From an uncultured bacterium (GTDB lineage Bacteria > Patescibacteriota > Patescibacteriia > UBA9570 > XYC2-FULL-38-9): 64,000 nt of DNA. A model generated the notes under the pieces. The model saw only the letters and a list, made by a program, of their open reading frames with translations. It was not told where the DNA came from and searched no databases. Shown in pieces: positions 13,294-59,591 of this stretch (positions are counted from its first letter, which is position 1; the number at the start of each line of letters is the position of its first letter). Both the position numbers and the translations under genes were made by a program. The stretch is taken from NCBI GenBank assembly GCA_937996685.1, contig CALKUP010000006.1:1-64000 (forward strand), read 5' to 3'.

Positions 13294-14010
13294 TTAAGAC
13301 ATTGTCAGATCGGCAACAAGCATGAGGCCAGCGTCCGTATTTGTACTGCAAAGCAAACGAGAATTAAACTGTGTTCCATGAAAAGCCGAAAGAAAGGCGT
13401 GAATTGTCGTCTCTGATCTTCCGTCAATTGCCACTGGTTTTGTTGCTTGTAAATCTTTTAACGTGTTCTGTGTTACAGCTTTTTGTAATCCCACAAGAAA
13501 ATCAGAAGATTGATCGTCTGGAGTAATAGCTGCAACAAATGCAATTCGTGTATTTGCGCTTAATAAAGTCGACCCAAGCGCGTCTCCAAGTTTTACAATC
13601 TGAGAAAGAGGGAAGACCTCGGAGCTCAACGGAAGGCGCACATGAACGTATTTTGCATTCTGCAGATGACTTGAGATCCTTGTTAATGAAATAGCAACAT
13701 CAGAATCGATGTGCTCTGAAGCATCTAAGTACAACCAGTCACTGTGTCCACGATTTGCGCACTCAGATTTCATGTGCATGATGAGCTCGATGTCATTTTT
13801 CATGATACAGTTACCATCGGGTGTTTTTAAGCATTCAGCAATACTCACTGTTGCAACTGTGTCTGTTTCAGGGGCAGTATCCAATACAACGATGGTGTCA
13901 GGTCGCATAAAATAGAGCTCTCCTTCAATTTCAGAAAAAGCCGCTCGCAAATCAGGCGCTGTCGGCGCTGTTGTGAGTTGAGGAATAATACTGCCGTGAA
14001 CTATAGACAT
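13294..14010 (-). CDS. Hypothetical protein
   Basis: 238-aa ORF. The N-terminus MSIVHGSIIPQ resembles the HGS start of some class-III extradiol dioxygenase/LigB-like proteins, but I cannot confirm this. Confidence 0.4.
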   Translation of the reverse strand: MSIVHGSIIPQLTTAPTAPDLRAAFSEIEGELYFMRPDTIVVLDTAPETDTVATVSIAECLKTPDGNCIMKNDIELIMHMKSECANRGHSDWLYLDASEHIDSDVAISLTRISSHLQNAKYVHVRLPLSSEVFPLSQIVKLGDALGSTLLSANTRIAFVAAITPDDQSSDFLVGLQKAVTQNTLKDLQATKPVAIDGRSETTIHAFLSAFHGTQFNSRLLCSTNTDAGLMLVADLTMS

Positions 14011-14014
14011 ACAG

Positions 14015-15520
14015 TTATTTTTTCTTTGTAGCAGTACTTGTTTTTGTTTGTGCTTTTTTCACAGTAGCACTCGCTTTCTTCGTTGTTGTTTTCTTTTTGA
14101 GAGAAATTTTTGCGCCAGCTGGATGTAGGTTTAAGATTTTTTGGTCAACAACAATAACATTGGAAATTTTATATCCATAGGCATCGAATGCCGCACGAGA
14201 ATCGAATGCAAGGCGCTTACCTTTAGAAATCACGTAAATTGATTTTCCATTTTTTGTTCGAACAAGCGTTCCATCTCGAAGCAAAAGCGGTTGTTTGACT
14301 TTGAATGATGCGTATTTTTCAGCAGAAACTGTTTCAATACTCTTGAAACCTGTACCAAACTGATTATTTAAGATGTCTTTTGAGAAAATTGCATACCCTT
14401 TATTTTCTGGGGTAATCCATGCGAGCTCGCCAGTTGCTTGATTGCGGACAATTGCACCGTTTGGATAAGTTTGTTTTGAAGAGATGTTTTTTCCAGTCTT
14501 GTAACCAACGATTTCACGAGTCGCGACTGAAATAACTTCTGATGCCTGGAAGCCAGAGTTTTTGAATGATTCTCGGTCTTCAAATTCACGCAATGTGTCG
14601 CCAACAACAAGATATAACTTGGAGTCAGGGGTCTGAAGGATTGAGTAGTTCGGGAATGAAATTGGAGTACCGGTTTGATATTTATTAATGACAGTTGCTG
14701 GAACTTTGATAATTGATTGGTTTCCGTAATTCGCAAGCAAAGCACTTTTTGAATTAAATCTTCGCTTTTTACCACCTTGAATCAAATAGACTGTGTTTTC
14801 ATGTTGCAGCAATGTTCCAGATGGATAGGTAATACTCGGATTCCATTCTTGCCACAATTTTGAAAAGAGGGAATTCGCACCATACCGAGAACTTCCGCCG
14901 CCGTACGCACCAACCCATGGATTATATGTATAGAGGGCAGCTGTTGCATTATTTGTCGGAGTAACAGCAACGCCATCAGCAGTGACCTTTGTTTTTCCTG
15001 GGCCCCAACCGGAACGAGTCGTCCCGCGATTTTCTAAATCAGTCAGGTATCGATTACGAAATTGCCACCCAGCTGAATCAAATTGATTTGCAATGCCTTT
15101 ATATGTCGCTGCTTGTTTTGCGGTACAACTATCACAATACCCAAAACCAAGAATCCATTTGTCCATTGATGCAGTCACTCGAGAAGAGGTGACAGCACCT
15201 GACTCCTTTTGCGCTAATACTAAAAACAACATTGGGTTCAAGTTGTATCGTTTTGAGACGTTTGAAATAATATCAGAAACATAACGGTCTTTACCGTCAA
15301 CGTCTTTTGTTTTGTAATCAGCCAGCGCAGACCCTTTGCTGTCGAGAAACTCTCGAACGCCTTTTGCGCTCAAGTAATTCTTGTTTGTCATGTCAGTATC
15401 TGAAATGATGTAGTTTTTATCGAAAGAAAATGCGAGTGTTTGGTGCGGAGCAAACAAGGTGAATGCTGTCGCTGCAGCAAAAAGGGCCGCGTTCAATTTT
15501 TTCATTTTTGTGTACTTCAT
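14015..15520 (-). CDS. Secreted protein: signal peptide, ~230-aa N-domain, four ~55-aa internal repeats, Lys/Thr-rich C-terminal tail
   Basis: Signal peptide MKYTKMKKLNAALFAAATAFTLFAPHQTLA. Repeats of the type VYLIQGGKKRRF...F...GY, LYLVVGDTLREF, WITPENKGYAIF, IYVISKGKRLAF. Tail KKKTTTKKASATVKKAQTKTSTATKKK. Confidence 0.6.
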   Translation of the reverse strand: MKYTKMKKLNAALFAAATAFTLFAPHQTLAFSFDKNYIISDTDMTNKNYLSAKGVREFLDSKGSALADYKTKDVDGKDRYVSDIISNVSKRYNLNPMLFLVLAQKESGAVTSSRVTASMDKWILGFGYCDSCTAKQAATYKGIANQFDSAGWQFRNRYLTDLENRGTTRSGWGPGKTKVTADGVAVTPTNNATAALYTYNPWVGAYGGGSSRYGANSLFSKLWQEWNPSITYPSGTLLQHENTVYLIQGGKKRRFNSKSALLANYGNQSIIKVPATVINKYQTGTPISFPNYSILQTPDSKLYLVVGDTLREFEDRESFKNSGFQASEVISVATREIVGYKTGKNISSKQTYPNGAIVRNQATGELAWITPENKGYAIFSKDILNNQFGTGFKSIETVSAEKYASFKVKQPLLLRDGTLVRTKNGKSIYVISKGKRLAFDSRAAFDAYGYKISNVIVVDQKILNLHPAGAKISLKKKTTTKKASATVKKAQTKTSTATKKK

Positions 15521-15630: not shown

Positions 15631-17151
15631 ATGACTACACAACATACCGACACAATCAGTCGCAAGGTACGAACTCGTTTCGCGCCTTCACCAACAGGCA
15701 GTTTGCATATCGGAGGCGCTAGAACCGCCTTGTTTGCATATCTATGGGCAAAACATAACAACGGAGACTTTTTATTACGCGTTGAAGACACCGATAAAGT
15801 ACGGGAAGTTCCTGGAAGTGGGGAAGAACAACGCGAAGGGTTGCGTTGGCTCGGCATTCAATGGGATGAAGGCCCAGAAGTTGGGGGAGAATATGGCCCG
15901 TATAAACAAAGTGAGCGCTTGGATATCTACAAAGAACATGCGCAAATACTACTAGATTCTGGGCATGCATATTATTGTTTTTGTACTCCAGAACGCTTAG
16001 ATCACATGCGTCGCGATCAACAAGCCCAAAAACTCCCGCCTCGATATGATCGACATTGCTTGACTCTGTCTGCTGAAGAAATTGCGAGCAAACAAGCAAA
16101 TAATGAAAAACATGTTGTGCGGTTAAAAATGCCGACTGAAGGGGCTGTTGTGGTTCGCGACATGGTTCGCGGTGAGCTAACATTTCAATACAAAGACATC
16201 GACGATCAAGTGTTGATGAAATCTGATGGATACCCAACATATCACCTTGCAAATGTGGTTGATGATCACCTCATGGAAATTACCGATGTTATCCGAGGGG
16301 AAGAGTGGCTCCCGTCAACACCGAAGCACATCTATCTCTATGAAGTATTTGGCTGGCAAGCACCAAGCTTTACCCATCTCACCGTTTTTTTGAGTAAGAA
16401 GGGCGGCAAAATGAGTAAGCGTGATGGAGAAACAGCGTTGCTTGCATTCCGGTCACTTGGGTATTTACCAGAAGCTGTTGTCAATTACAGTGCACTTCTT
16501 GGCTGGAACCCAAAGACCGAAGAAGAATTTTTTTCCATGAGTGACCTGATCGAAAAATTCGACTTATCAATGCTCAATGCAGGAAATCCGGTCTTTGAAA
16601 CTGAGAAACTCGACTGGCTGAATGCTCAGTACCTGAAGAAAAAAAGTGTTCAAGAATTTATTGAAGATATCCACACCTTTAAAAATCATGTAACAGGGGA
16701 GAATGGTGATAAAATTTCCGAATTTATTGAGTATTTTGAGTTTTTACCGATTCAAAAACAGGAGTCTATTTGGTCTTCTTTAAAAGAGCGAACAAAAAAA
16801 TTACTCGATGTTGTATCGGTCAATGAAGTACTCGCGGAACTCCCTGAATATGATGCAGAGCTCCTTGTATGGAAGAAGTCTACAAAGGAAGGCGCAATTG
16901 CAGCACTGACTGCTGTTATTGAGCAATTCAAAACAGTTGAGTCAGAGCATTTTATCGTTTCTGAGATTCAACCAGCAATTCTTGATTGGATCAAAACAAC
17001 AGAATGGGGGAACGGTGACGTATTGTGGCCAACACGTTTTGCTCTATCGGGCCTTGCGCAATCACCGTCACCATTTGAACTTGCTGAAATTCTTGGCAGA
17101 GAAGAATCAGTCCGTCGATTAGAGCTGGCTGTACAAAAATTACAGAGGTAG
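15631..17151 (+). CDS. gltX: Glutamyl-tRNA synthetase
   Basis: HIGH motif (PSPTGSLHIGGARTALF) and KMSKS motif (KMSKRDG). I chose the ATG at 15631; the longer ORF would begin at a TTG at 15595. Confidence 0.93.
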   Translation: MTTQHTDTISRKVRTRFAPSPTGSLHIGGARTALFAYLWAKHNNGDFLLRVEDTDKVREVPGSGEEQREGLRWLGIQWDEGPEVGGEYGPYKQSERLDIYKEHAQILLDSGHAYYCFCTPERLDHMRRDQQAQKLPPRYDRHCLTLSAEEIASKQANNEKHVVRLKMPTEGAVVVRDMVRGELTFQYKDIDDQVLMKSDGYPTYHLANVVDDHLMEITDVIRGEEWLPSTPKHIYLYEVFGWQAPSFTHLTVFLSKKGGKMSKRDGETALLAFRSLGYLPEAVVNYSALLGWNPKTEEEFFSMSDLIEKFDLSMLNAGNPVFETEKLDWLNAQYLKKKSVQEFIEDIHTFKNHVTGENGDKISEFIEYFEFLPIQKQESIWSSLKERTKKLLDVVSVNEVLAELPEYDAELLVWKKSTKEGAIAALTAVIEQFKTVESEHFIVSEIQPAILDWIKTTEWGNGDVLWPTRFALSGLAQSPSPFELAEILGREESVRRLELAVQKLQR

Positions 17152-17174
17152 CCACACCTCTGTTTACTAGCGAG

Positions 17175-17207
17175 AAAAATACCCTTGAGCGCGGGGGTAT
17201 TTTTTGT
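17175..17207 (+). terminator. Rho-independent terminator after gltX
   Basis: AAAATACCC-TTGAGCGCG-GGGGTATTTTTT: 8-9 bp stem followed by a T-run. Confidence 0.6.
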
Positions 17208-17222
17208 TATACTAAGGAGCAT

Positions 17223-18575
17223 ATGAATATCGTAAATACACAAAAATACAAGAAAACAGTCTATAGAATACTCCTTGGTCTATGCGTTATCGGCGCTACA
17301 CTTGGCGGAGCCCATCAAGTGCTAGCGACTCGTCTTGATAATGCTGTTTTCGATAATATCGTTAACCAAGAAATCAACAAAGATTCTTCCTTAACAACGT
17401 TGAATTCAGACATTGAACAAAAGGCAAAACAGGTGAGAGACATCGAAGAGAAGCTCAAAATCTATAAAGACAACTTAGAGAAAAAGCAACAAGAGAAATT
17501 TTCGCTCCAACAAGAAATTAGCACTATCGAAACCCGCATCGATAGCGCACAGGCAGATATTGGAAAGAACCAGACTGAGATTGATATTCTCGGGCTCGAA
17601 CTCCAGGTCCTTGAGAAGCAAATTACTGTTGCTGAAAATGATATTGAACGTCAAAAAGCTATTTTAAAAGGCGTTATCAAAGAACTGTACCTACGCGACA
17701 AGCAAAGTCCGTTTGAAATTGCGATGCAAAGTACAAATTTGTCTGATTTCTACTCAGAAGCAGAGTACACCAGTCGAATTCAGAAAGAAATGCAGGAAAC
17801 AGTCGATGCTGTACAAAAAAATAAAGATGATTTGAATCAGAAAAAAACCGAGCTTGCAGAAAAAAAATCAGGTGTCGCGAAAGAAACTGCTGATTTGCAA
17901 ACAAAAAAAGATCAACTCGAAGGGGATCAGGCATACAAAGGCCAACTTCTTGATCAAACAAAGCAGTCTGAAGAAGAGTTTCAAAAGCTTGTGAGTCAAG
18001 CAAAATCAGACCAAGCGCAAATGGAGGGCCAAATTTCAGGCTTGCAAACACAAGCGCAGTCTAAAATCAGTAAGATTAAAGCGGAGATACAAGCACGTTT
18101 AAGTGACGGGGATAAAACAAACGACACTTTAACAACAGAAGAAGAGGCTATTACAGAAAGCAAAACTGGCTTTATTTGGCCGATTCCTTCACGAACAATT
18201 ACATGCGGCTTTCATTGTGGTGGCTACCCATTCCAAAACTATATCGGGCCCCATTCAGGAATGGATATTGCGACACCAGTCGGCACGCCAATTAGAGCGG
18301 CTGCAGCGGGGTATGTTGCACGTGTTGTCTTTGATCCAGGCTCATCACGACTTGGCTGGATTATGATTGTTCATGGAGACGGCCTCGCTACCGTGTATAT
18401 GCATGTTAGCGGTGTAAACGTCACTGCAGATCAATTCGTGGCTCAAGGGCAGGTTATTGGACGCTCCGGTGGTCTCGCTGGCACGCCTGGATCAGGATTA
18501 TCAACTGGAGCTCATCTTCACTTTGAAGTCCGCTTAAATGGTATCCCAACAAACCCAGCAAGCTACTTGCCATAA
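17223..18575 (+). CDS. M23 (LytM) family peptidase with long N-terminal coiled coil (EnvC/PcsB-like architecture)
   Basis: AAGGAG RBS. Signal/TM, ~280-aa coiled coil, then an M23 domain with HSGMD (HxxxD) and HLHFE (HxH). Confidence 0.85.
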   Translation: MNIVNTQKYKKTVYRILLGLCVIGATLGGAHQVLATRLDNAVFDNIVNQEINKDSSLTTLNSDIEQKAKQVRDIEEKLKIYKDNLEKKQQEKFSLQQEISTIETRIDSAQADIGKNQTEIDILGLELQVLEKQITVAENDIERQKAILKGVIKELYLRDKQSPFEIAMQSTNLSDFYSEAEYTSRIQKEMQETVDAVQKNKDDLNQKKTELAEKKSGVAKETADLQTKKDQLEGDQAYKGQLLDQTKQSEEEFQKLVSQAKSDQAQMEGQISGLQTQAQSKISKIKAEIQARLSDGDKTNDTLTTEEEAITESKTGFIWPIPSRTITCGFHCGGYPFQNYIGPHSGMDIATPVGTPIRAAAAGYVARVVFDPGSSRLGWIMIVHGDGLATVYMHVSGVNVTADQFVAQGQVIGRSGGLAGTPGSGLSTGAHLHFEVRLNGIPTNPASYLP

Positions 18576-18621
18576 AAGGTCTTTGGGGACAAGGCAAGTC
18601 ACAATAATATAATACGCAGCA

Positions 18622-18650
18622 GGGGACGATAGACGTCCCTTTGTTGTATT
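18622..18650 (+). terminator. Putative intrinsic terminator after M23 peptidase gene
   Basis: GGGGACG-ATAGA-CGTCCC hairpin followed by TTTGTTGTATT. Confidence 0.45.
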
Positions 18651-18879
18651 CATGCATATCTCGGTCATCCAGAAGCATGGACTCAAGAGATGTGTAAGGA
18701 AGATAGCGGGGAAATAAAAAACTCTACATGATGCTCAAGAAAAAATATACGGCTGCAACACACACAACACCCGGTATTCATGAACAGACTTTTCGATTGC
18801 TCGAGTTGAAGGGAACACCGCAAATCGACCCTCTAGCGCGTTTGTATATGTGTCGCACAATATACCTTTTACGACTCTT

Positions 18880-18916
18880 TAATATCCAAAATAGAAAGGA
18901 TACTGCATATATCCTT
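18880..18916 (-). terminator. Putative intrinsic terminator after ftsQ-like gene
   Basis: On the minus strand: AAGGATA-TATGCAG-TATCCTT, then TCTATTTTGG. Confidence 0.45.
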
Positions 18917-18929
18917 CCATTTACGTATT

Positions 18930-20168
18930 TTATTTTATGTAGACTCTATCCGCGATGCGCACATCTACTGTCTTTGTTGTTCCTGACTGCACCTTCCCTT
19001 GTTGTGTCACAATCCGTAGTTGCTCTACCTGTTGTTCCATGTCTCGCATCGTATCAAACTTCACCTCTATGACACCCTTGCCATCTTTTTGGATCAACAC
19101 GTGAAGATCTGACGCTACTTGCACAAAGTCACACGCAACAACTTTATCAACCGTCGCCCATTCAAGTTTTTGCGGAACGGCAGTATTTGTCGCCACTGGC
19201 GCTTTTGTCTCCTGCTCTTCTTTTTTTACTTCTTCTAACGCCGCGAGACTTTCTTCAATGTCTAACTCGCCTTTTTTAAACTGCTCTTGAATAACACGTT
19301 TTTTTTCTTTAAATGCATCCGTGGTTGAATCAGTGATCGCATCGGCAAAAATTTGCTGCGCGACATATTCCTGTTCTTTGCAGGTCATGACTGGAAAAAC
19401 GAATGATTCAACATTCCACCCATTTTCCACTAACAGATCTTTAACCGCCATTAAATCGCTGAGATAGTCAGGATGAATAATTTGCCAACCGATCCCCAGT
19501 TGGGCTCTATTTTTATCGAAAATTTGAGGTAATTTTGTATCAACCTCATTTTTATTTGTTGTTTCTGCGGTAACAACGCCCTTATGATCAATTGTATAAT
19601 AATGATCAACTCCTCCAGCATCGCGTGTTGCCCAAATAACACTTGGAACACGCTCTGTAATTTGCACTTGTAACGTGTTTGGGTACTTTTTTGTGACCTG
19701 AATGTCTTCTGCAGCGAAATTATTTGCAAAACCAGATTTTAGTTGTCGGGTCACCGACGATTCCGAAATGGTCCAGTATCTATTTTTTGGGATTCCCAAG
19801 AATGAATCCTGCAGCAACGCGTTTGTTTTATCAATCACCTCTTGTTTTGGGATAAATTGAGTATCATTCACTGTAATATTTCGAAGTACAAATTGATCGC
19901 TTTGAAATACAATAATATACGCCCCTACTCCAAGAATTCCAAAAATACCAGCAAGAGCGAAGCCATCTTTTCGCATAAACGCATCAAACGCAATTCGAGC
20001 GTCTGTTTTTGTTTTTGGTGTCTGTGTTTTACGGAATTGATTTTTTTGTGCTGGTGTAACAAATTTTGTACTACGAGAAACAGCCCGCAAAGAGGCTTGT
20101 TGTTCCTTGAGTGACTGCATGCGAGCTGATTGTCGTCGCTTTTTGTATGCCTGTAATAATACCTTCAT
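18930..20168 (-). CDS. Cell division protein FtsQ/DivIB-like (POTRA + beta domain), extended C-terminal acidic/coiled region
   Basis: Basic cytoplasmic N-terminus, one TM (LAGIFGILGVGAYIIVF), then a POTRA-like FVLRNITVNDTQFIPKQEV segment. Confidence 0.55.
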   Translation of the reverse strand: MKVLLQAYKKRRQSARMQSLKEQQASLRAVSRSTKFVTPAQKNQFRKTQTPKTKTDARIAFDAFMRKDGFALAGIFGILGVGAYIIVFQSDQFVLRNITVNDTQFIPKQEVIDKTNALLQDSFLGIPKNRYWTISESSVTRQLKSGFANNFAAEDIQVTKKYPNTLQVQITERVPSVIWATRDAGGVDHYYTIDHKGVVTAETTNKNEVDTKLPQIFDKNRAQLGIGWQIIHPDYLSDLMAVKDLLVENGWNVESFVFPVMTCKEQEYVAQQIFADAITDSTTDAFKEKKRVIQEQFKKGELDIEESLAALEEVKKEEQETKAPVATNTAVPQKLEWATVDKVVACDFVQVASDLHVLIQKDGKGVIEVKFDTMRDMEQQVEQLRIVTQQGKVQSGTTKTVDVRIADRVYIK

Positions 20169-20221: not shown

Positions 20222-21835
20222 ATGGATTTTTTCACACCCTCTCAATCAACGCTTTTTTTGTTAGAGATTATTTTATGGACAACAGGCATTACAGCCGGCA
20301 TCGGTAAGGTGTTATTTTGGACAGGAATCATTCGAATACACCACTACCGAATGAGTCGTTTTATTGATTTTCTCGGAACGAAACAAGGGATTGCACTACT
20401 TGCCCACCCTGTTGGAATTTCTGATGCAATACTCGCGCTCTGCCTGGTATTGCTTTTGCAATTTTACGACACAACACATCTTTTGTGGAATCAATTTTTA
20501 TTCGCTTCTATTCTCCTCTATCTATCACACATTGCGTGGTACGTGCATGCGGTAAAGCCACAACATCGTTTCAGATTTCAGTCATTTGTTATCGGGGCTA
20601 CTGCTATCGTACTTTCCTTGCTGGGCGCAACGCTTCTCTATACATACTTCCCATTACCGTCCGTGATTGATGTTGCTGTGTTTCAAGTAGCGATCCCGAT
20701 ATTTGGAGTCGCGACAACAGCCCTTATTTCTTGGATTACCGGTGTCTCAGAGCGACTGGTGAGCGCAAAAGCACGGGCGCGCATTGAGAGCATGCAACCG
20801 ATTATTATTGCAATGAGTGGGACACACGGACGAAGCACAACTCGCACAGCTCTTGAGCACATACTTGCTTCTTCATACAATGTATTGTCGATACCTGCTC
20901 ATGCAGACGAATCACTTGCTGAAACGATATTCAACCAATTGTCTGAAGAACACCAAATCGTACTCTATGAAATTGACCCAACATCACCAGAAGATGTTGT
21001 GATGAGCCTCGCAGTTGCGCCACCTATTGTACTCGTGATTCCAGCAATTGAAGAGTCGTATATCCACGTACCGTTTATTGACCAAACACAGTTTTCAAAA
21101 AGCTACGTACAGATGATTGAGGCTTTGCCAAATAACGGGCTTGTCGTACTGAATGCTGATGATGCAAAAACAGCAATCCTTGCGGAACATAGTGCCGCAC
21201 GTGTAAAGTATTTTTCACTTCAGTCAGTTGCGCACGCCTATCTCCGAAGTGTTTCGCTGCAATCGGAATTCATTGATTGTGAAATTTCTGTTGGGTCACA
21301 AAAAAGAACCCTACATATTCCTGCAATTGGCACTGAACCAATCGCCGCGCTGCTTGCTAGTAGCATTGTCGCTGAACATCTTGGCATCGCCATAGAAGCG
21401 GTTGCGCATGCGGTCGAAGGATCAAGCGCACCACACGGCACGACGACTGTGTCATACGGCGTCAATCACGCATTCATTATGAACGCAACAGCTCTTTCTA
21501 GTTATTCAGAAATTCGATCAGCATTCGATTATGCAAGCATTCACACAACAAAAGAAAAGGTGCTTCTTATCGACACACGCCAGCAAGCACTTTGGCGCCT
21601 AACACTCCCCTTTTGTGTTGATATTATTAACCAATACATGTTTATTGGATCCGAAGGAAAAACTGTTCGTGATATCTGTATAAAAGAATATAACATTCAA
21701 CCAGAACGCATGCACCTTCTTTCAAATAGCCGTAAGGCAGCTGACGCATTACGAACATCCATGACCCCACAGCACCTCGTTATTGCACTTGGTCCCCTGC
21801 CTTCAAGAGTTCAAGAAGTGCTGCAAACACCGTAA
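20222..21835 (+). CDS. Mur-ligase-family protein with ~180-aa polytopic membrane N-terminal domain; P-loop GTHGRSTT (Lys->Arg)
   Basis: About five TM helices, then a Mur ligase central domain (AMSGTHGRSTTRTAL, NADD motif in VLNADDA) and a Mur-ligase C-domain. Confidence 0.6.
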   Translation: MDFFTPSQSTLFLLEIILWTTGITAGIGKVLFWTGIIRIHHYRMSRFIDFLGTKQGIALLAHPVGISDAILALCLVLLLQFYDTTHLLWNQFLFASILLYLSHIAWYVHAVKPQHRFRFQSFVIGATAIVLSLLGATLLYTYFPLPSVIDVAVFQVAIPIFGVATTALISWITGVSERLVSAKARARIESMQPIIIAMSGTHGRSTTRTALEHILASSYNVLSIPAHADESLAETIFNQLSEEHQIVLYEIDPTSPEDVVMSLAVAPPIVLVIPAIEESYIHVPFIDQTQFSKSYVQMIEALPNNGLVVLNADDAKTAILAEHSAARVKYFSLQSVAHAYLRSVSLQSEFIDCEISVGSQKRTLHIPAIGTEPIAALLASSIVAEHLGIAIEAVAHAVEGSSAPHGTTTVSYGVNHAFIMNATALSSYSEIRSAFDYASIHTTKEKVLLIDTRQQALWRLTLPFCVDIINQYMFIGSEGKTVRDICIKEYNIQPERMHLLSNSRKAADALRTSMTPQHLVIALGPLPSRVQEVLQTP

Positions 21836-23133: not shown

Positions 23134-25233
23134 TTAAAGCTGTTGCATCGCACGAATTGTTAACTCCAATACATCATCAACAGATGTTTCCGGAAGCCAT
23201 TCTGGAATTTTTTGAATCCACTCACGATCAACTCCGCGGGCAAATGATTTGTCTTTCAATTTTTTCTTGACGCTTTTCAGCTCAAGTTGCGCAATGTCTT
23301 TATCTGGACGAACTGCAACACAGGCTGCAATAAGGCCTGTGACCTGCTCACACGAACGCAGTGCTTTTGCAAGCAGTGTGTGAGGGTCCCCACTGTTATT
23401 ATGCGGATTATGCAATTCAACAGCTCGGACAATCACAGGGTCAATACCCTTCGCCGTTAACCACTGTGCACCAAGAATGGCATGCTCTGTGTGAATAGAG
23501 TCAGGGTGGCAACTTTCATAATCAATATCATGTAACACACCTGCGACATACCACGCTTCTGGATTCTTCGCGCCAAACCGCTCTGCAAGCGCTGCCATTT
23601 GCTCTCCAACGGCACGATTATGATAACGAAGCGCGTCACTTTGAATTTTTTCTTCCATCCACGCATCAGCTTCTGCGCGTGTAATTCCTGGGTCGCACTC
23701 TTCAAGACTTGCATCACCTGCAACTTCTTCAGCAGAAATCGTGACTTCTTCTGTTGTCGCTGGCTCTGCGGTGCCATGTTTTGGCCGATACAGTGGAAAC
23801 AATACAGCATCACGAATGGACATGTCCATTAAAAATGAAAACAACCGTTCAGAAAAACCGAAGCCGAATGTCGGTGGCATTCCGTGCTCTAGTGCTTCAA
23901 CAAATTCCTCATCGTTCATCTGCGCCTCTCCATCACCTTGCGCCCGTAATTCCGCTTGATGCTCGAAACGCTCACGTTGATCAATTGGATCATTTAACTC
24001 TGAATAGCCATTTCCAACTTCACTGCCGGCAATAATCACCTGGAAACGCTCAACAACTTCTGGGTTATCTGAGTGTCGTTTTGCAAGCGGTGAAACAGAA
24101 ACAGGATGATTAATCAGCAATGCTGGGCCGGCAATTTTTTTACGACACTGTTTCCACAGAGAGTCGATTAAGCGTCCTTTTCCTGATCCAGCTTCAACCA
24201 GGATATCATGCCGCGCACAAACAGCTCGCAATTCTTCCTCTGTCGCTGTTAATACATTCACGCCAAATTGTTGTTCAACGGCCGTTGCGTAATCAATAAT
24301 TTCCCATTCTTTTTCAAAGTCAATATCAAAACCACGAATATGACATTGCAATGTACCGAGGGTCTCTTTAATAATATGTCGATACATACGTTTCACAAAG
24401 TCCATGCCTTTTGTGTAATCTGCGTATGCCCAATAACACTCCATTTGAGAGTAGTCTTGCAGATGTTCCGGACTCATGCCTTCATTACGAAATTGTCGTC
24501 CGATTTCAAATGTTTTTTCAAAACCTGCAACCATTAATCGCTTTTGCCATAACTCACCCATGGAGATACGCAGATACACATCAATATCAAGAGCATTGTG
24601 ATGTGTCATAAATGGTGTCGCGTCTGCTCCGCCAGTGGTATTTTCTAATACCGGAGTTTCTACTTCCAAAAATCCATCATTCAATAAAAATTGACGCGTC
24701 GCATTCCAAAATCGCGCTTTCGCAATAAAGACATCACGCAACTCTGGTCGCAGTAACAAATCAATATATCGCTTGCGAAGCTTTGTTTCATCGTCTTGAA
24801 TTCCATGCCATTTGTCTGGCAGTGGTTGCAGTGCTTTTGTTAATATCCGTAATTCAGACACAAGCAATGACTGCTCCCCTTTTTTCGTAATAAATGCAAC
24901 GCCTGTACATTCAATAATATCACCTGCGCCAATCGTATGTGTCGCCCAATCAAATAGCACCTCACCTGTCTGTTCGCTACTTACAACAATTTGGACATCA
25001 CCACTTGCGTCACGTAATCGTAAAAAAATCAACTTTCCGTGTTCTCGTTTGAGCAAAACGCGGCCAGCCAAGATACGAGCTTCTTGTGAGTCATGGAGCT
25101 CCTTAAAGCGATTAAAAAAATCACCGACAATAGTATTGCGATTGCTATCCGCTGGGTATGGATTTACACCATTTGCGCGCAAATTATTTGCGACTTCTAA
25201 TCGTACGTCAAATTCTGTTTTGTGTTCACTCAT
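23134..25233 (-). CDS. lysS: Lysyl-tRNA synthetase (class II) fused in-frame to a C-terminal YqeK-like HD-domain phosphohydrolase
   Basis: LysRS N-terminal OB fold and class II core (~500 aa), then ~190 aa with HD-domain motifs: HNRAVGE...LAERFGA...VLHDID...HTEHAILGAQWL...ELHNPHNNSG. Start set at the ATG MSEHKTEF (25233); a GTG at 25266 lies inside the greA terminator hairpin. Confidence 0.88.
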   Translation of the reverse strand: MSEHKTEFDVRLEVANNLRANGVNPYPADSNRNTIVGDFFNRFKELHDSQEARILAGRVLLKREHGKLIFLRLRDASGDVQIVVSSEQTGEVLFDWATHTIGAGDIIECTGVAFITKKGEQSLLVSELRILTKALQPLPDKWHGIQDDETKLRKRYIDLLLRPELRDVFIAKARFWNATRQFLLNDGFLEVETPVLENTTGGADATPFMTHHNALDIDVYLRISMGELWQKRLMVAGFEKTFEIGRQFRNEGMSPEHLQDYSQMECYWAYADYTKGMDFVKRMYRHIIKETLGTLQCHIRGFDIDFEKEWEIIDYATAVEQQFGVNVLTATEEELRAVCARHDILVEAGSGKGRLIDSLWKQCRKKIAGPALLINHPVSVSPLAKRHSDNPEVVERFQVIIAGSEVGNGYSELNDPIDQRERFEHQAELRAQGDGEAQMNDEEFVEALEHGMPPTFGFGFSERLFSFLMDMSIRDAVLFPLYRPKHGTAEPATTEEVTISAEEVAGDASLEECDPGITRAEADAWMEEKIQSDALRYHNRAVGEQMAALAERFGAKNPEAWYVAGVLHDIDYESCHPDSIHTEHAILGAQWLTAKGIDPVIVRAVELHNPHNNSGDPHTLLAKALRSCEQVTGLIAACVAVRPDKDIAQLELKSVKKKLKDKSFARGVDREWIQKIPEWLPETSVDDVLELTIRAMQQL

Positions 25234-25241
25234 ACGTGTGT

Positions 25242-25274
25242 AAAAAAAATATACTGCGCTCTTCACGCAGTATA
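25242..25274 (-). terminator. Rho-independent terminator after greA, abutting lysS start
   Basis: Minus strand: ATATACTGCG-TGAAGAG-CGCAGTATAT then TTTTTTTT. It lies 8 nt before the lysS ATG. Confidence 0.55.
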
Positions 25275-25302
25275 TCAGACAAAATGTCTTAATTCAAGCG
25301 CT

Positions 25303-46816: not shown

Positions 46817-47263
46817 TTACATCCGTCGTGCCTTCTTTGGACGACATCCGTTATGTGGGATTGGAGTCACATCACGAATACTGAGCATATTAAATCCTTG
46901 AGCGTTGATCGCGCGAATTGCGCCATCACGACCGCTTCCAACACCACGCACGAGCACATCAACATCACGCAACCCCATTTCATGCACTTTTTCAGCGGCA
47001 GCTTTTACAATAATACCAGCGGCATATGGAGTGGATTTCTTTGGGCCTTTGAACCCGCAACGTCCAGCAGATGATTGCGCGAGCGCATTTCCGTGTGGAT
47101 CAGTGAAGGTGATAATTGTGTTGTTATATGTTGCAGTAACATATACACGTCCTCGTGGAACTTGTTTCTTCTTGTTCTTTTTGCGTTTCGCCTTTGGCGC
47201 AGCGTCTTCTGTTGTTGGCTCTGCAGCCTCAACCGGCGCTTCTTGTTTCATTTCTTCAGTCAT
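46817..47263 (-). CDS. rpsK: 30S ribosomal protein S11 (with Lys/acidic N-terminal extension)
   Basis: uS11 core GRVYVTATYNNTIITFTD...AAEKVHEMGLRDVDVLVRG. Confidence 0.93.
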   Translation of the reverse strand: MTEEMKQEAPVEAAEPTTEDAAPKAKRKKNKKKQVPRGRVYVTATYNNTIITFTDPHGNALAQSSAGRCGFKGPKKSTPYAAGIIVKAAAEKVHEMGLRDVDVLVRGVGSGRDGAIRAINAQGFNMLSIRDVTPIPHNGCRPKKARRM

Positions 47264-47288
47264 AAATCGTTTCTATTATCTAGGCAAA

Positions 47289-47681
47289 TTATGTCTTTTG
47301 AGCTGCTTTTGCCTTACCAGAACCAGCTGTTCGACGAACGTTTCCACGAGTTGTTCGATTGTTCGTTTTTGTTCGTTGTCCACGCACTGGAAGGTGACGT
47401 GAATGACGGTAGCCGCGATATGAACCAATTTCTTTCAGGCGCTTGATGTGTGACAAGATGTCACGACGTAAATCACCTTCGATTTTTAAACCGCCTTGCT
47501 CAACTGCTTCACGCAATTTTTGCTCATCAGTTTCCGATAAATCTTTCACACGAACGTCAGGGTTGACGCCTGTTGTCTGAATGATTTTTGCCGCAATTGA
47601 CGGACCGATTCCGTAAATATACGTCAACGCGATTTCAACGCGTTTCTCTTTTGGTAGTGTTACTCCTGCAATACGTGCCAT
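47289..47681 (-). CDS. rpsM: 30S ribosomal protein S13
   Basis: [26 protein letters not shown]. Confidence 0.93.
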
Positions 47682-47807: not shown

Positions 47808-48050
47808 TTAGAGACGCTTTGTTATTCTTCCTTTCGTTAGATCATACGGTGTCATTTCCACAATGACTTGATCTCCTGGCAACACGCGAATTTTGTACAT
47901 TCGCATTTTCCCAGAGAGCATGGCTCGGACTTCATGGCCAGTTTCGAGGGTGACGCGGAAGGCTGCGTTTGGCAGCATCTCCTCAACGAACCCTGGAACC
48001 TCAATGAAACCCTTTTTATTCGCTTTAATTTGTGTGGTCGCTGTACTCAC
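47808..48050 (-). CDS. infA: Translation initiation factor IF-1
   Basis: S1-like OB fold: [63 protein letters not shown]. Confidence 0.9.
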
Positions 48051-48274
48051 ATTGAAGCGTTACTCATTAAATTTTGAAATAATCAGCAAGCAAGGAAAAA
48101 CGGCCTCTCCGTATTATGCCCTTCGATCAATATGCGAAGCGCGCCGGAAAAGGCTTGAATTGGATGAATCTCCTTTACTATTGCAGATTCTTAGCCGAAT
48201 TCATGAAAGTCTGCTGATTTTTCAAAGCTCGTGGAGTATACAATAGACTAAAAACTATGTCAAATGCACGGCTT

Positions 48275-50954: not shown

Positions 50955-53753
50955 TTAGCTCAATCTTTCAGCTTGTTTCACGGTCATTTCTCCATTTACA
51001 CCCAATACGACCGTATCGCGGCGTCCTAACTCTTGAGAGAGCATCAGCTTCGCAAGTCCATCATCAACGGTGTCTTGGATCGCACGTTTGAGCGGACGAG
51101 CGCCAAATTGTGGGTCAAATCCACGCTTGGCGATATCAACAACTGCTTCCGGCGGGATCTCCATCACAATCCCTTTTTGCGCCTTTAACTGCGTCGCGAC
51201 CTTTTGCAACATATTATCTGCAATAAAGACCACCTCTTCAAATGTCAGCGGTTTAAAGACAACAATATTATCAAATCGATTTAAAAACTCTGGAGCAAAA
51301 AATTCAAGCAGTGGACCATCCATGAGCTGTGTTTTAATTTGATCTGATGAAAGCCCTGCGTTAAAACCGTTTTGAATCGCGCGCGTTCCGGCATTGGATG
51401 TCGCGATAATCATGATGTTGCTCAAATCAATTGTTCTCCCCTTTCCATCTGTTAACCGGGCGTCATCCATCACTTGCAAAAAGACATTCAAAACATCACG
51501 ATGCGCTTTTTCTAACTCATCGAGCAGCAACAATCCGAACGGCTTTAATCGAACGGCTTCGGTTAAAATTCCTTGTTCGCCATTTGTGCCGATTAATTTA
51601 TAGAGTGATGACGGAGTTTGATATTCACTCATATCAATACGGATCATGTTGTCTTCATTTCCAAAATAAACCTCCGCGATTGTTTTGGCTGTTTCGGTTT
51701 TTCCAACTCCAGTCGGTCCTAAAAATAACAAATTAGCAATTGGACGATGTTGATCTCGCAAACCTTGCCGCGCTCGGCGCAACGCTGACGCCACTGCTTG
51801 CACGGCCTCGTCTTGCCCAATCACACGGTCATGCATGATTTCCTCGAGGTGCAATAATTTTTGGCGTTCATCTTCTGTCACAGCAGAAACTTTGATGTTC
51901 GCTTTTTGTGAAATCACTAACGCAACATCATCTTTTGTCACCATACTATTTGCTCCCTTTTGCGCCTCAACGGCGGACGCAACCTCAGATGCAATGTCTA
52001 ATGCTTTTGCCGGCAAATATCGGTCTTGAATAAACTGCATCGATAAATCAACGGTCGCGGCAATCGCGGCATAGGAAAAGAAGGTGTGATATTTATATTC
52101 CAAACTCCCGGCTTTTGCTTCAACAACTTGAATGGCATCTTCACGAGTCATCTCATTGACTTGGACAACACGAAACCGTCGCAATAGTGGCCCTTTGTTT
52201 TCAATAAATTGTTGATATTCCTGCGTTGTTGTTGTCGCGATCACTTTCACAAGACCTTGCGACATTGCGTTCATTAAAATACCAGACACATCTTCAGAGC
52301 CTGATCCCGATCGCATATTCACTAAATGATGGACATCTTCAATCCCAAGAACAATGTTTCCAGCGCGTGCAATTTCAAAAATCACTTGCTGCATCCGTCC
52401 TTCAACAGCGCCGACTCCACCGGCGTTTGCAATGAGCGCACCTGGATCTAACACCACAAAACGCTTGTCTTGTAATTCCGGCGGAACATCTTCTGATGAC
52501 ATCACTTGGGCAACACCTTCAAACAAGCTGGATTTTCCAGCGCCCGGAGGCCCGACAAGGAGTACATGCGACACTCGGTCACGTAAAATTCTGAGCACTT
52601 GTTCCATTTCGGCTTCACGTCCAATCAACGGAAAAAATCCACCGCTGGCTGCTGTTGCTGTGTAATCACTGGACATTGATTGCAGGAGCGGAGAAGGCCG
52701 CGCAGTCATCGCACGATCCATAATCCCGTTTGGTTTTGACCCGGCTCGAGATTTCCACTCTCGATATCGGTCTTGTAGATTTTTTTGAATATGTATCCAT
52801 TGCACACAAGCCCTGAGCATGTCTTCATCAATTTCTAAATCATCGAAAATTTGAATTGCCCAAGCATCACGCGTTGTGATCATGATAAACAGCTCCATCA
52901 CATCAACATACTGCCGTTTACTTCGGCGGGCTTCTGCAAACGCATAAAATAACACTTGCTTCAATTCAACTCCCATATCCAAACCACCGCCAACCTCAAC
53001 GCCTTCCTTTCCAAATGCGACGCCAATCCGCTGCATCATTGGCTCACGAGCAACGCCCAGTCGCGCTAAAATGATTTTAATCGATGTACTATCTGAAACA
53101 GCTGCCAATAAATGCAACGGCGTCACAACATGATGATTCAACGACCGCGCAAGTGAATACGCAGACTCAATCGCAATAATTGCCTCCTTTGTAAAATACG
53201 GAGCCATATCAACCCGGTGCGATTTTCCTGTGTGATTGTACCCGTTAAATGTCCGGTTTGCTGGATGCTTCCAACTCCCCATTTCTTTCCACGCGTTCAA
53301 AGCCTTTTCAGAATATCGAAACGATTCTTTCGATGCCTTTTCTAAAGACAGTCGATAATACAAGAACAACAACGCGAGCATCCCAATCCAAAACATCGTC
53401 ATCGACAACGACGGCACAAGCAATACATCAAGAATGTCGCCAGCATCTCGTTGATTTACAAAAATCGCAACCGCAAGACCGAGGATGCCAATCATCGCAA
53501 CAAGAAACACAACTAATTGCAATCCAAAGTGCGCATATCGCAATAAGCGGCGCTCTGCAATTCCTGTTGCGGTAATCGGGAGATTCCAATACAGCAAAAT
53601 AGAGTCGAGAATCGCGTACACACTTGGGTTGTTCTCACAATTATGACACGCCACGTGTTGCCGACTTGGCGTTACAGTAAAGCCAAAGCCTTCACATGTT
53701 TCGCATGGAATAAACTGCATTGAGACTGTTGGTTTTTCTGGTGCTAATTCCAT
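50955..53753 (-). CDS. ClpC/ClpB-like class-I double AAA+ unfoldase with N-terminal zinc ribbon and two TM helices
   Basis: CETCEG..x17..CHNCE ribbon and 2 TMs. Clp_N repeats. AAA1 (GPPGAGKS, sensor ATTTT). AAA2 (GPTGVGKTE, LLLLDELEKAH, ATSNAG, GARPLKR). The M domain is short. A possible ClpP loop reads NGF rather than I/VGF. Confidence 0.85.
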   Translation of the reverse strand: MELAPEKPTVSMQFIPCETCEGFGFTVTPSRQHVACHNCENNPSVYAILDSILLYWNLPITATGIAERRLLRYAHFGLQLVVFLVAMIGILGLAVAIFVNQRDAGDILDVLLVPSLSMTMFWIGMLALLFLYYRLSLEKASKESFRYSEKALNAWKEMGSWKHPANRTFNGYNHTGKSHRVDMAPYFTKEAIIAIESAYSLARSLNHHVVTPLHLLAAVSDSTSIKIILARLGVAREPMMQRIGVAFGKEGVEVGGGLDMGVELKQVLFYAFAEARRSKRQYVDVMELFIMITTRDAWAIQIFDDLEIDEDMLRACVQWIHIQKNLQDRYREWKSRAGSKPNGIMDRAMTARPSPLLQSMSSDYTATAASGGFFPLIGREAEMEQVLRILRDRVSHVLLVGPPGAGKSSLFEGVAQVMSSEDVPPELQDKRFVVLDPGALIANAGGVGAVEGRMQQVIFEIARAGNIVLGIEDVHHLVNMRSGSGSEDVSGILMNAMSQGLVKVIATTTTQEYQQFIENKGPLLRRFRVVQVNEMTREDAIQVVEAKAGSLEYKYHTFFSYAAIAATVDLSMQFIQDRYLPAKALDIASEVASAVEAQKGANSMVTKDDVALVISQKANIKVSAVTEDERQKLLHLEEIMHDRVIGQDEAVQAVASALRRARQGLRDQHRPIANLLFLGPTGVGKTETAKTIAEVYFGNEDNMIRIDMSEYQTPSSLYKLIGTNGEQGILTEAVRLKPFGLLLLDELEKAHRDVLNVFLQVMDDARLTDGKGRTIDLSNIMIIATSNAGTRAIQNGFNAGLSSDQIKTQLMDGPLLEFFAPEFLNRFDNIVVFKPLTFEEVVFIADNMLQKVATQLKAQKGIVMEIPPEAVVDIAKRGFDPQFGARPLKRAIQDTVDDGLAKLMLSQELGRRDTVVLGVNGEMTVKQAERLS

Positions 53754-54130
53754 AACGCGAGTGAATCAATAATTCCAACATGAAATAAAATATTCCACAC
53801 AATGGCCACCGGAACAAGAATCCACAACACAAACCCAATCAACAACACAAGCGTATACAGCAATGTCCAAATAGATAAAATCAAAAAATGCGCGAGCCGA
53901 ACATACAAACTAATCAAACGACCGACGATGTCGTTTTGACCGTACATTGGCGTCAGCAAAAAACGAAACAAGATCCGTAGATTATACGCGCGAGCAAATC
54001 CGTGCAATTCTTTTCCAATCAACTGTAATACATTCCATACACCAACTGTATACCACCAGACCGGAAAATACAGCACACTCCATACAATGTCTGTAAAAAT
54101 AAATCGTAATGGTTCAAAAAATGCATTCAT
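53744..54130 (-). CDS. Small polytopic membrane protein (hypothetical), overlaps the start of the ClpC-like gene
   Basis: 128 aa, 3-4 TM helices. Its stop overlaps the downstream AAA+ gene start by 10 nt, so likely translationally coupled. Confidence 0.45.
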   Translation of the reverse strand: MNAFFEPLRFIFTDIVWSVLYFPVWWYTVGVWNVLQLIGKELHGFARAYNLRILFRFLLTPMYGQNDIVGRLISLYVRLAHFLILSIWTLLYTLVLLIGFVLWILVPVAIVWNILFHVGIIDSLALWN

Positions 54131-54172: not shown

Positions 54173-54622
54173 CTACGCAGCCAGCAATCGCGCATCTTCA
54201 AGAAGTGTTTCAAAATATTCTTTTGAAGACGGATATGACAAGCGCTCAAGGACAGCTTGTCCGTCACACCACTCGCCTCCATCCACTTCTGACATATCGA
54301 GCGGTAAACCCGTTTCTTCAATGACACGCATTAAGAAAAAGACAACATGATTTCGGTCACCATTTGGTGCTGTGTATGCATGCTCCGGCAAACGCTTCAC
54401 GATTTCGCATCGAAAACCAGTTTCTTCCAAAACCTCGCGCAATGCCCCTTCTTTCAATGTTTCCCCTGAATCAATATGCCCTTTCGGAAATGACCAATCG
54501 TTGTATCGATGACGATGAATTAAGAAAAATTCGGTGTGCCCACCAACTGTTCGCATGATAATTCCTCCAGCTTTGGTATGTTGTTGTTCATTCATCCCTG
54601 TAGTATACAGGAGTTTACCCAT
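54173..54622 (-). CDS. NUDIX hydrolase
   Basis: Nudix box GHIDSGETLKEGALREVLEETG. Confidence 0.8.
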   Translation of the reverse strand: MGKLLYTTGMNEQQHTKAGGIIMRTVGGHTEFFLIHRHRYNDWSFPKGHIDSGETLKEGALREVLEETGFRCEIVKRLPEHAYTAPNGDRNHVVFFLMRVIEETGLPLDMSEVDGGEWCDGQAVLERLSYPSSKEYFETLLEDARLLAA

Positions 54623-58984: not shown

Positions 58985-59445
58985 GTGTTCTGTATGGCCC
59001 CTCTATAAGCCGGCTTCTGTTTCTGTTACCGAAGTAGCAGATGATAGCTATCTCTCTATGAGCTATTGTCGCCAATAACTTCGTGCTCCAATTACTGGAT
59101 TGCACCGAACAGGGTTTACCATCAAACGTTGTCACCAACGCTGAAATTTTGTCGCTCTACCCGAAAGTAGAACCATCAAAATACTTTTCACCTTTGACTC
59201 CGCAGGAGTCATCCTGAGTACATCGAAGGATCCTTCGACTCGCTTCACTCTCTCAGGATAGCTCCTACGGAGCTAGTATTGTCTCTGTGGCACTTTCCCT
59301 CGATTTATACAATAGGCGCAGAAATTTCTTTGGTGCGTCTATTATAGTATACGGGTTGCCGTTAGCAACTGTCCTTGACCGGTCTCTATTGCTAGAGGCC
59401 GAGGTGGCCAGACTTTCCTCTCTTTATAGCCAGTAAACCGACTAT
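58985..59445 (-). ncRNA. rnpB: RNase P RNA (bacterial type), minus strand; boundaries approximate
   Basis: On the minus strand: P4 5'-strand GAGAGGAAAGUCUGGCC (59421-59405), GGGAAAGUGCCACAGAGAC (59299-59281), GGUAAACCC (59120-59112), P4 3'-strand ACAGAAGCCGGCUUAUA (59020-59004). Order and ~400-nt spacing fit rnpB. No protein-like ORF here. Confidence 0.6.
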
Positions 59446-59591
59446 ATTGAGCAGCTATCCAAAGAACCAGTACAGCGCACACATAAGCACAATTCGATAC
59501 AATATACGTTTTTTCGACTTGTCTGTGCTGGATGAACATACAATATTTTAAGCGATTAGTCAATATTTTTTGTTGTGATATACTACAGGAT

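Follow-up and report, generated by a model that had tools for sequence, protein, structure and literature searches.

In mycoplasmas, the adenylyl-transferring enzyme NadD is joined to a small hydrolase of the HD superfamily, YqeK (PRK07152; JCVISYN3A_0380), and the YqeK part destroys the erroneous dinucleotide products of its partner (PMC9426524). YqeK (COG1713/TIGR00488; PDB 2o08, 2ogi, 3ccg, 8wmy and 8jja) is the symmetrical hydrolase of diadenosine tetraphosphate (Ap4A) in Firmicutes and their relatives. Lysyl-tRNA synthetase (LysRS) is a classic producer of Ap4A and other dinucleoside tetraphosphates (Np4N), and Np4-caps RNA in vitro (PMC10148737). Here, we describe a gene, lysS-HD, in the first 64,000 nucleotides of contig CALKUP010000006.1 (assembly GCA_937996685.1; hereafter the window) from an uncultured member of the Patescibacteriota, in which a LysRS continues in frame into an HD-family phosphohydrolase domain. 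It differs from NadD-YqeK in its partner, which is LysRS and not NadD, and in its HD subfamily, and it is known from sequence. We find that the fusion is real, old and conserved, and we argue that its HD domain is almost certainly an active enzyme whose task may be to clear the by-products of the synthetase to which it is tethered.

The protein begins with a class II LysRS (residues 1-485), continues through a linker that is disordered and acidic (residues ~486-517) and ends in an HD domain of 182 residues; coordinates are collected in Table 1. Residues 6-485 score above the curated cut-offs of both NCBIfam lysine--tRNA ligase models (PRK00484, 520.5 bits for a cut-off of 468; TIGR00499, 477.3 bits for 427.6), and with an OB domain followed by a D/K/N core they can be assigned to the class II LysS family, in agreement with an original prediction, made from the letters of the sequence, that a complete class II LysRS is present. 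That prediction had also placed the two parts in one frame, which the continuous open reading frame (ORF) at 23134..25266 (-), with zero stops and zero frameshifts between them, bears out. The HD motifs that it had listed are all in the translation (LAERFGA at residue 549, VLHDID at 566, HTEHAILGAQWL at 581 and ELHNPHNNSG at 606).

Table 1. Features of the lysS-HD gene and its product in the window (residue numbers refer to the 699-residue protein).
Feature	Coordinates	Strand	Evidence
Whole lysS-HD coding sequence	23134..25233	(-)	699 codons + TAA at 23134-23136; continuous ORF; ATG fits homologue N-termini
OB-fold anticodon-binding domain of LysRS, residues 55-131	24841..25071	(-)	Pfam PF01336 tRNA_anti-codon, 43.6 bits; pLDDT > 90 in full-length model
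Class II aminoacylation core of LysRS, residues 148-481	23791..24792	(-)	Pfam PF00152 tRNA-synt_2, 229.6 bits; many core residues invariant in 64 fusions
Acidic interdomain linker, residues 486-517	23683..23778	(-)	9 Asp/Glu, 0 Lys/Arg; poorly conserved; low pLDDT
HD-family phosphohydrolase domain, residues 518-699	23137..23682	(-)	Pfam HD PF01966 at 537-613, 27.2 bits (cut-off 22)
His538, predicted first metal ligand	23620..23622	(-)	Invariant across 64 fusions and the 63-sequence alignment of the family
His568-Asp569-Ile-Asp571, HD dyad and family-specific invariant Asp, motif HDxD[YW]	23521..23532	(-)	H568, D569 and D571 invariant
His584, predicted second-metal ligand	23482..23484	(-)	Invariant in fusions and family alignment
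His608, predicted second-metal ligand	23410..23412	(-)	Invariant in fusions and family alignment
Glu629, predicted last metal ligand	23347..23349	(-)	Glu in 109/109 fused domains; mostly Asp in standalone relatives
Basic block S654-VKKKLKDKSFARGVD-R670, family signature without YqeK counterpart	23224..23274	(-)	S654, K658, F664 and R670 invariant in fusions; conserved family-wide
Terminator-like hairpin (12 bp) + T8, between greA and the lysS-HD start	25248..25276	(-)	Terminator scan; RNA fold -19.8 kcal/mol, z -3.3

Such a protein could in principle result from an error of assembly, frameshift or gene calling by which lysS was run together with a distinct HD gene downstream of it, a chance that we consider virtually nil. 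With the full-length protein as query, 120 clusters were recovered, almost all of 670-750 amino acids (aa) and from metagenome-assembled genomes of the Patescibacteria (candidate phyla radiation). Their source names include Kerfeldbacteria, Jacksonbacteria, Magasanikbacteria and 'Patescibacteria group', and their records, where named, read plainly 'lysine--tRNA ligase'. An HD-family hidden Markov model detected the domain in the same C-terminal architecture in 111 of the 121 top LysRS homologue proteins. An independent assembly (GCA_964632705.1, locus L001) encodes a 712-aa orthologue (P0122) that is 72% identical end to end (77% over the LysRS, 29% over the linker and 65% over the HD domain) and lies in the same gene order, GreA / LysRS-HD / SerRS / Mur-ligase. 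Moreover, a separate HD gene stands beside lysS in none of the four unfused relatives examined. We reject the artefact because the same in-frame architecture is shared by so many homologue clusters from independent assemblies, the orthologue among them. The survey of related genomes that the original prediction had suggested therefore turned out in its favor, and frame continuity near the domain junction, for which it had looked to reads, is upheld by this cross-genome evidence rather than by reads.

The fusion is also prominent when approached from the HD side. A search of 1.84 billion cluster representatives with the HD domain recovered 1,662 relatives at E<=1e-3. Among the best 150 of these 1,662, 16 are proteins of 656-1072 aa with a C-terminal HD domain (both of the two scanned proved to be LysRS fusions) and another 5 represent truncated LysRS-HD fragments; in this set LysRS is by far the commonest partner of the non-standalone members. 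The same search also brought up the HD family joined to AMMECR1 (P0289, 370 aa). Among the matches listed by a genome-contig search with the same domain, all are standalone homologues, at <=47% identity, and the search says nothing on the frequency of the fusion in GTDB species representatives.

The two halves appear to be loosely connected. In the full-length AlphaFold model, the LysRS and HD parts are both confident and the predicted TM score (pTM) is down to 0.61; residues 482-502 have a predicted local distance difference test score (pLDDT) < 50, as has the matching part of a model of the HD domain. Unfused relatives end a few residues past an FPL(L/V)RPK motif, the point where the window linker starts. 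The low linker pLDDT, the reduced pTM and the acidic composition together indicate that the HD domain hangs on a flexible tether of ~20-35 disordered acidic residues, and is neither docked on the synthetase nor part of a channel.

The HD domain has the hallmarks of a working hydrolase. It matches Pfam HD, the profile that the original prediction proposed for checking it, above the cut-off (Table 1), and its C-terminal part matches NCBIfam HDIG (TIGR00277) at 33.3-35.9 bits (cut-off 27.6). The literal H-D-[IV]-G-K motif that gives HDIG its name is missing from 110 of the 111 fused domains, which carry HD[ILVM]D[YW] instead, and the standalone consensus reads HDxDY. The structure prediction also proposed for the domain yields a confident all-helical model (pLDDT 90.7, pTM 0.84). 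An H..HD..H..H..D pattern forms a dinuclear metal site in YqeK (PMC8177086, PMC11857287), and the corresponding positions H538, H568, D569, H584 and H608, as well as D571, are invariant in an alignment of 63 family members, position 629 being Asp or Glu. Across 64 aligned fusions that diverge to ~45% identity, all ligands including E629 are invariant, as are G565, G633, P643, S654, K658, F664 and R670. The metal-binding dyad H568-D569, on whose presence the original prediction depended, is thus fully retained. We conclude that the HD domain is almost certainly active, because its six ligands (H538, H568, D569, H584, H608 and E629) are unchanged across 64 diverged fusions.

The same residues speak against a non-catalytic module that binds tRNA or regulates the synthetase, in the manner of the bacterial GlyRS beta subunit, whose degenerate HD domain is itself among the top structural matches. 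In bacterial (alpha-beta)2 GlyRS this domain binds the tRNA acceptor arm and has lost the dyad (Ser393-Lys394 in E. coli), whereas in LysRS-HD the dyad is intact and the domain tethered and dispensable. A degenerate, GlyRS-like domain was thus rejected on its invariant catalytic ligands, and repeated loss of the HD domain without harm to LysRS (see below) argues against a role in tRNA recognition; we regard this explanation as very improbable.

To which HD family the domain belongs is less straightforward, and here the original prediction, which had called it YqeK-like, stands in part. It belongs to a large family of standalone proteins of ~175-205 aa, 35-47% identical to the window domain, whose annotation goes no further than HDIG or HD domain protein. 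They are spread over Gemmatimonadota, Methylomirabilota/Rokubacteria, Ignavibacteria, Bacteroidota, Acidobacteriota, Deferribacter, Heliobacterium, Alicyclobacillus and others. In an NCBIfam scan, all 63 family members tested matched HDIG. Below threshold, they matched PRK12703, in which the tRNA C56 2'-O-methyltransferase aTrm56 is fused to an HD domain (51 members, best 6e-15), TIGR00295 (51, 5e-11), the DVU_1551 NTP-transferase-HD model (44), RNase Y (43, 2.4e-15), PRK07152 (37, 2e-8) and the YqeK model TIGR00488 (35, 4e-8), the last being weaker and rarer than those to PRK12703, TIGR00295 or RNase Y. The window domain itself gave no NCBIfam match to TIGR00488 at E<=1 and a weak one to PRK07152 (E 0.13-0.14). 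A PDB search with the window domain as a single sequence found nothing significant, and with the family profile it reached YqeK as the best match, in a ranking limited to solved structures.

Residue by residue, with YqeK residues and distribution drawn from secondary literature, the two families share the dinuclear set of a His, the HD dyad, two extra His and a terminal acid, which is Asp in YqeK and Glu here. They differ in several respects. Lys62 of the HDxxK motif of Streptococcus pyogenes YqeK, which binds phosphate and whose mutation lowers activity (PMC11857287), is Tyr572 here and Tyr or Trp family-wide. The HDxD[YW] motif holds an extra invariant Asp, and an insert of ~20 residues that follows the HD dyad in YqeK is missing. 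Alignments stop at the last metal ligand. Beyond it, YqeK builds an adenine pocket from its C-terminal third (Leu172, Phe180 and Thr183 in S. pyogenes), where the present family has a Lys/Arg-rich block, SVKKKLKDKSFARGV; the pattern VKKKLKDK occurs throughout the HD family. Genomic context differs as well, YqeK being clustered with or fused to nadD while the neighbors here are greA and serS; the nucleotidyltransferase beside lysS in two relatives (loci L085 and L087) is RibL/FAD_syn-like and not clearly NadD. Because the domain has no match to TIGR00488, carries Tyr/Trp in place of Lys62 and departs from YqeK in its C-terminal third, we assign it on sequence grounds to the HDIG group of the HD superfamily, as a relative of YqeK and not a member of its family. 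Its family is roughly equidistant from YqeK and from the HD domains of RNase Y and aTrm56-HD.

The history of the fusion was traced with quick neighbor-joining trees built from corrected p-distances without support values. In the HD-domain tree, a single clade holds all 109 complete fused domains together with just six standalone proteins, and the uniform Glu of the fused domains at the last metal ligand compares with 112 Asp and 5 Glu among standalone proteins, which points to essentially a single fusion event. In the LysRS-core tree, nine proteins without the HD domain are scattered over at least seven separate positions among the fused proteins. For eight of them the nearest or second-nearest relatives are fused (67-76% identity), and the ninth (P0236) pairs with another unfused protein, with fused proteins next. 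This scatter argues that the HD domain has been lost repeatedly from LysRS. The four unfused relatives inspected all keep the order mreB-mreC-mreD-PBP2-greA-lysS ... serS ... Mur-ligase. In two of these (L084 and L086) serS directly follows lysS, and in the other two (L085, 7476-8937; L087, 7470-8936) lysS and serS are separated by the RibL/FAD_syn-like gene (137-144 aa) and a Ham1-NUDIX fusion (341-349 aa); the L085 interval also holds a 109-aa ORF. Since fused and unfused genes occupy the same greA-lysS-serS slot in a shared mreBCD-PBP2 ... Mur-ligase block, lysS-HD is the orthologue of the ordinary housekeeping lysS, with the HD domain an accessory dispensable to the synthetase.

Other appendages were observed among the LysRS homologues. 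In P0201 (636 aa), the domain fused to LysRS is not HD but DUF2000 (PF09391, 70 bits), and because the LysRS core of this protein nests among HD-fused proteins, one appendage appears to have replaced the other. In two patescibacterial proteins LysRS and HD are separated by B3/4 (PF03483, which has the PheRS-beta editing fold), preceded in P0248 (1072 aa) by tRNA_bind (PF01588) and alone in P0189 (915 aa). They possibly represent a cis-editing module on LysRS which, if real, would be a finding in its own right. P0161 (668 aa) has two stretches each of the OB and core domains, suggesting a tandem or chimeric LysRS fragment.

What might an active HD hydrolase do on this synthetase? The explanation that we tentatively favor, plausible rather than shown, is that it clears the Ap4A and Np4N made by LysRS. 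LysRS is an obligate dimer, and the dimer would place two HD domains beside two aminoacylation sites. Attack on lysyl-AMP by ATP or another nucleotide would yield Ap4A, Ap3A, Np4N and possibly Np4-capped RNA ends, which the tethered domain would hydrolyse to ADP/ATP where they are formed. LysRS-HD would then serve a minimal genome as a means of metabolite damage control, by analogy with the NadD-YqeK of mycoplasmas. In this best explanation, the Ap4A-family substrate and the benefit of proximity are the parts that we infer. In its favor, the nearest characterised relative of the domain, YqeK, is an Ap4A hydrolase; the same HD family is found fused to MazG, an NTP pyrophosphohydrolase (P0315, 310 aa); and the Ham1-NUDIX gene lies just 3' of lysS in the two HD-less relatives mentioned above. 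Ap4A chemistry also accounts for the fact that, of twenty synthetases, LysRS was the one chosen, and little else does.

In a less specific explanation, the domain is a general nucleotide-pool hydrolase whose substrate has nothing to do with LysRS chemistry, acting on damaged or non-canonical NTPs, dNTPs or alarmones of the (p)ppGpp/(p)ppApp type, and its fusion to LysRS an accident of adjacency, tolerated or kept for co-expression only. However, the fusion has been retained with a perfect active site in >100 clusters that diverge to ~45% identity, which argues for a selected coupling, and LysRS is the dominant partner, in at least 21 of the best 150 cluster representatives. We consider a general hydrolase of this kind unlikely.

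Several observations weigh against Ap4A clearance. The window domain lacks a match to the YqeK model, the phosphate-binding lysine and the YqeK-type C-terminal third, and NCBIfam puts the family at least as near to the RNA-directed domains of RNase Y and aTrm56-HD. Some LysRS variants insert the tRNA-directed tRNA_bind and B3/4 before the HD domain. The window also encodes a separate 149-aa NUDIX hydrolase (54173-54622 (-), 71 bits), which could already handle Ap4A, or could act in RNA decapping or as a MutT type. Finally, the neighborhoods of the standalone genes offer no link to LysRS: lysS was found within 4 kb in 0 of 80 loci, and neighbor clustering revealed no consistent functional partner, in a sample consisting mostly of high-GC Gemmatimonadales with noisy ORF calls. 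The contexts seen include lgt-HD-ruvB in Deferribacter, a series of HD, ATC hydrolase and LigT genes in Heliobacterium, and an HD gene beside a PstS-like gene in two others.

Some of this evidence favors a substrate made of RNA. The domain would then be a phosphoesterase directed at tRNA or RNA and delivered by LysRS, for example in the healing of tRNA(Lys) 3' ends (as a 2',3'-cyclic phosphodiesterase/3'-phosphatase, like the HD domain of bacterial CCA-adding enzymes) or in other RNA processing. The commonest and strongest sub-threshold matches of the family are to HD domains on RNA enzymes, PRK12703 (aTrm56-HD) being an HD domain on a tRNA-acting enzyme. The LysRS C-terminus gathers tRNA-directed modules, as P0248, P0189 and P0201 illustrate; the GlyRS-beta HD domain, a top structural match, contacts the tRNA acceptor arm; the conserved Lys/Arg-rich block S654-R670 could bind an RNA backbone; and the Heliobacterium standalone homologue lies two genes from a LigT-type 2',3'-cyclic phosphodiesterase. 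The matches to the archaeal TIGR00295, to PRK12703 and to RNase Y fall far below the curated cut-offs, the KH and transmembrane parts of RNase Y are absent here, and the TIGR00295 and PRK12703 HD domains are themselves uncharacterised. The window domain also has neither the class II nucleotidyltransferase head of CCA-adding enzymes nor close similarity to their HD domains. An RNA-directed role is in our view somewhat unlikely, and its narrower form, in which the domain acts on tRNA(Lys) itself, for instance stripping 2',3'-cyclic or 3'-phosphates from damaged ends before charging, is quite unlikely. Chemistry outside these readings takes up the remainder.

The consequences depend on the substrate. 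If the domain hydrolyses Ap4A/Np4N, a whole radiation of minimal genomes would have tied an Ap4A destroyer to its main producer, a natural experiment that bears on an old debate, in which Ap4A is seen either as an alarmone or as a damage metabolite. The HD family would then be a further family of Ap4A hydrolases, with standalone members widespread in Gemmatimonadota, Methylomirabilota, Ignavibacteriota and Deferribacterota. With tRNA as its substrate, the domain would instead represent a type of catalytic appendage new to aminoacyl-tRNA synthetases. Repair of tRNA(Lys), if true, would make LysRS-HD the first such synthetase with a built-in tRNA-repair phosphoesterase, and would assign a function to an HD family fused to tRNA enzymes in archaea (aTrm56-HD) and in Patescibacteria (LysRS-HD and LysRS-tRNA_bind-B3/4-HD). 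Either way, patescibacterial proteins annotated as 'lysine--tRNA ligase' are probably bifunctional, and the fusion gives a functional lead for an uncharacterised HD family of at least 1,600 cluster representatives.

The start of lysS-HD required a choice, its ORF giving 710 aa from a GTG at 25266 and 699 aa from an ATG at 25233. Homologue N-termini begin M(S/N)EHKTEF, in agreement with the ATG, and the GTG sits within the 12-bp hairpin 3' of greA which, with its T8 tract, looks like the greA terminator. For these two reasons the ATG appears to be the better start, and the 710-aa form was rejected. The public protein record (P0121) is this GTG-initiated form; as its start falls inside the hairpin, it is probably 11 residues over-long.

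Elsewhere in the window, we found a complete bacterial class A RNase P RNA at 58990-59470 (-) (129 bits, gathering score 100) and no tRNA genes in the whole 64 kb. GC skew flips from positive to negative near 17-18 kb (window ~16000-20000; cumulative maximum 0.42), and genes lie mostly on the minus strand past 18.9 kb, which would fit either a replication terminus or the boundary of an old inversion. A 537-aa protein at 20222-21835 (+) is hydrophobic in its N-terminal third and matches Mur_ligase_M only weakly (36.5 bits); its gene adjoins serS in all relatives examined, where the counterparts also carry Mur_ligase_C. Interspersed with housekeeping genes (fmt, def, priA, gltX, ribosomal proteins and rpoA) are five ORFs of 117-501 aa (13294-14010 (-), 14015-15520 (-), 46905-47402 (+), 47893-48246 (+) and 53744-54130 (-)) for which Pfam gave no match at E<=1e-3.

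A full-text literature search found no description of the LysRS-HD architecture, which is apparently undescribed; the original prediction had likewise known of none. Synthetases with appended domains and the NadD-YqeK fusion are already known, and what appear uncharacterised are the combination of LysRS with HD, its breadth in the Patescibacteria and the HD family itself. The Ap4A hydrolases ApaH and Nudix (RppH/NudH-type) may be functional analogues of the HD domain, with unrelated folds and mechanisms, and we know of neither as a fusion to an aminoacyl-tRNA synthetase. A class II LysRS fused to a second enzyme is found in LysX of mycobacteria (MprF-LysRS, PRK02983), to which the window LysRS aligns with 448 bits. 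In LysX, however, an N-terminal membrane lysyl-phosphatidylglycerol synthase is joined to a dedicated second LysRS whose Lys-tRNA it uses, whereas the fusion described here places a soluble, C-terminal, putative hydrolase on the housekeeping LysRS.

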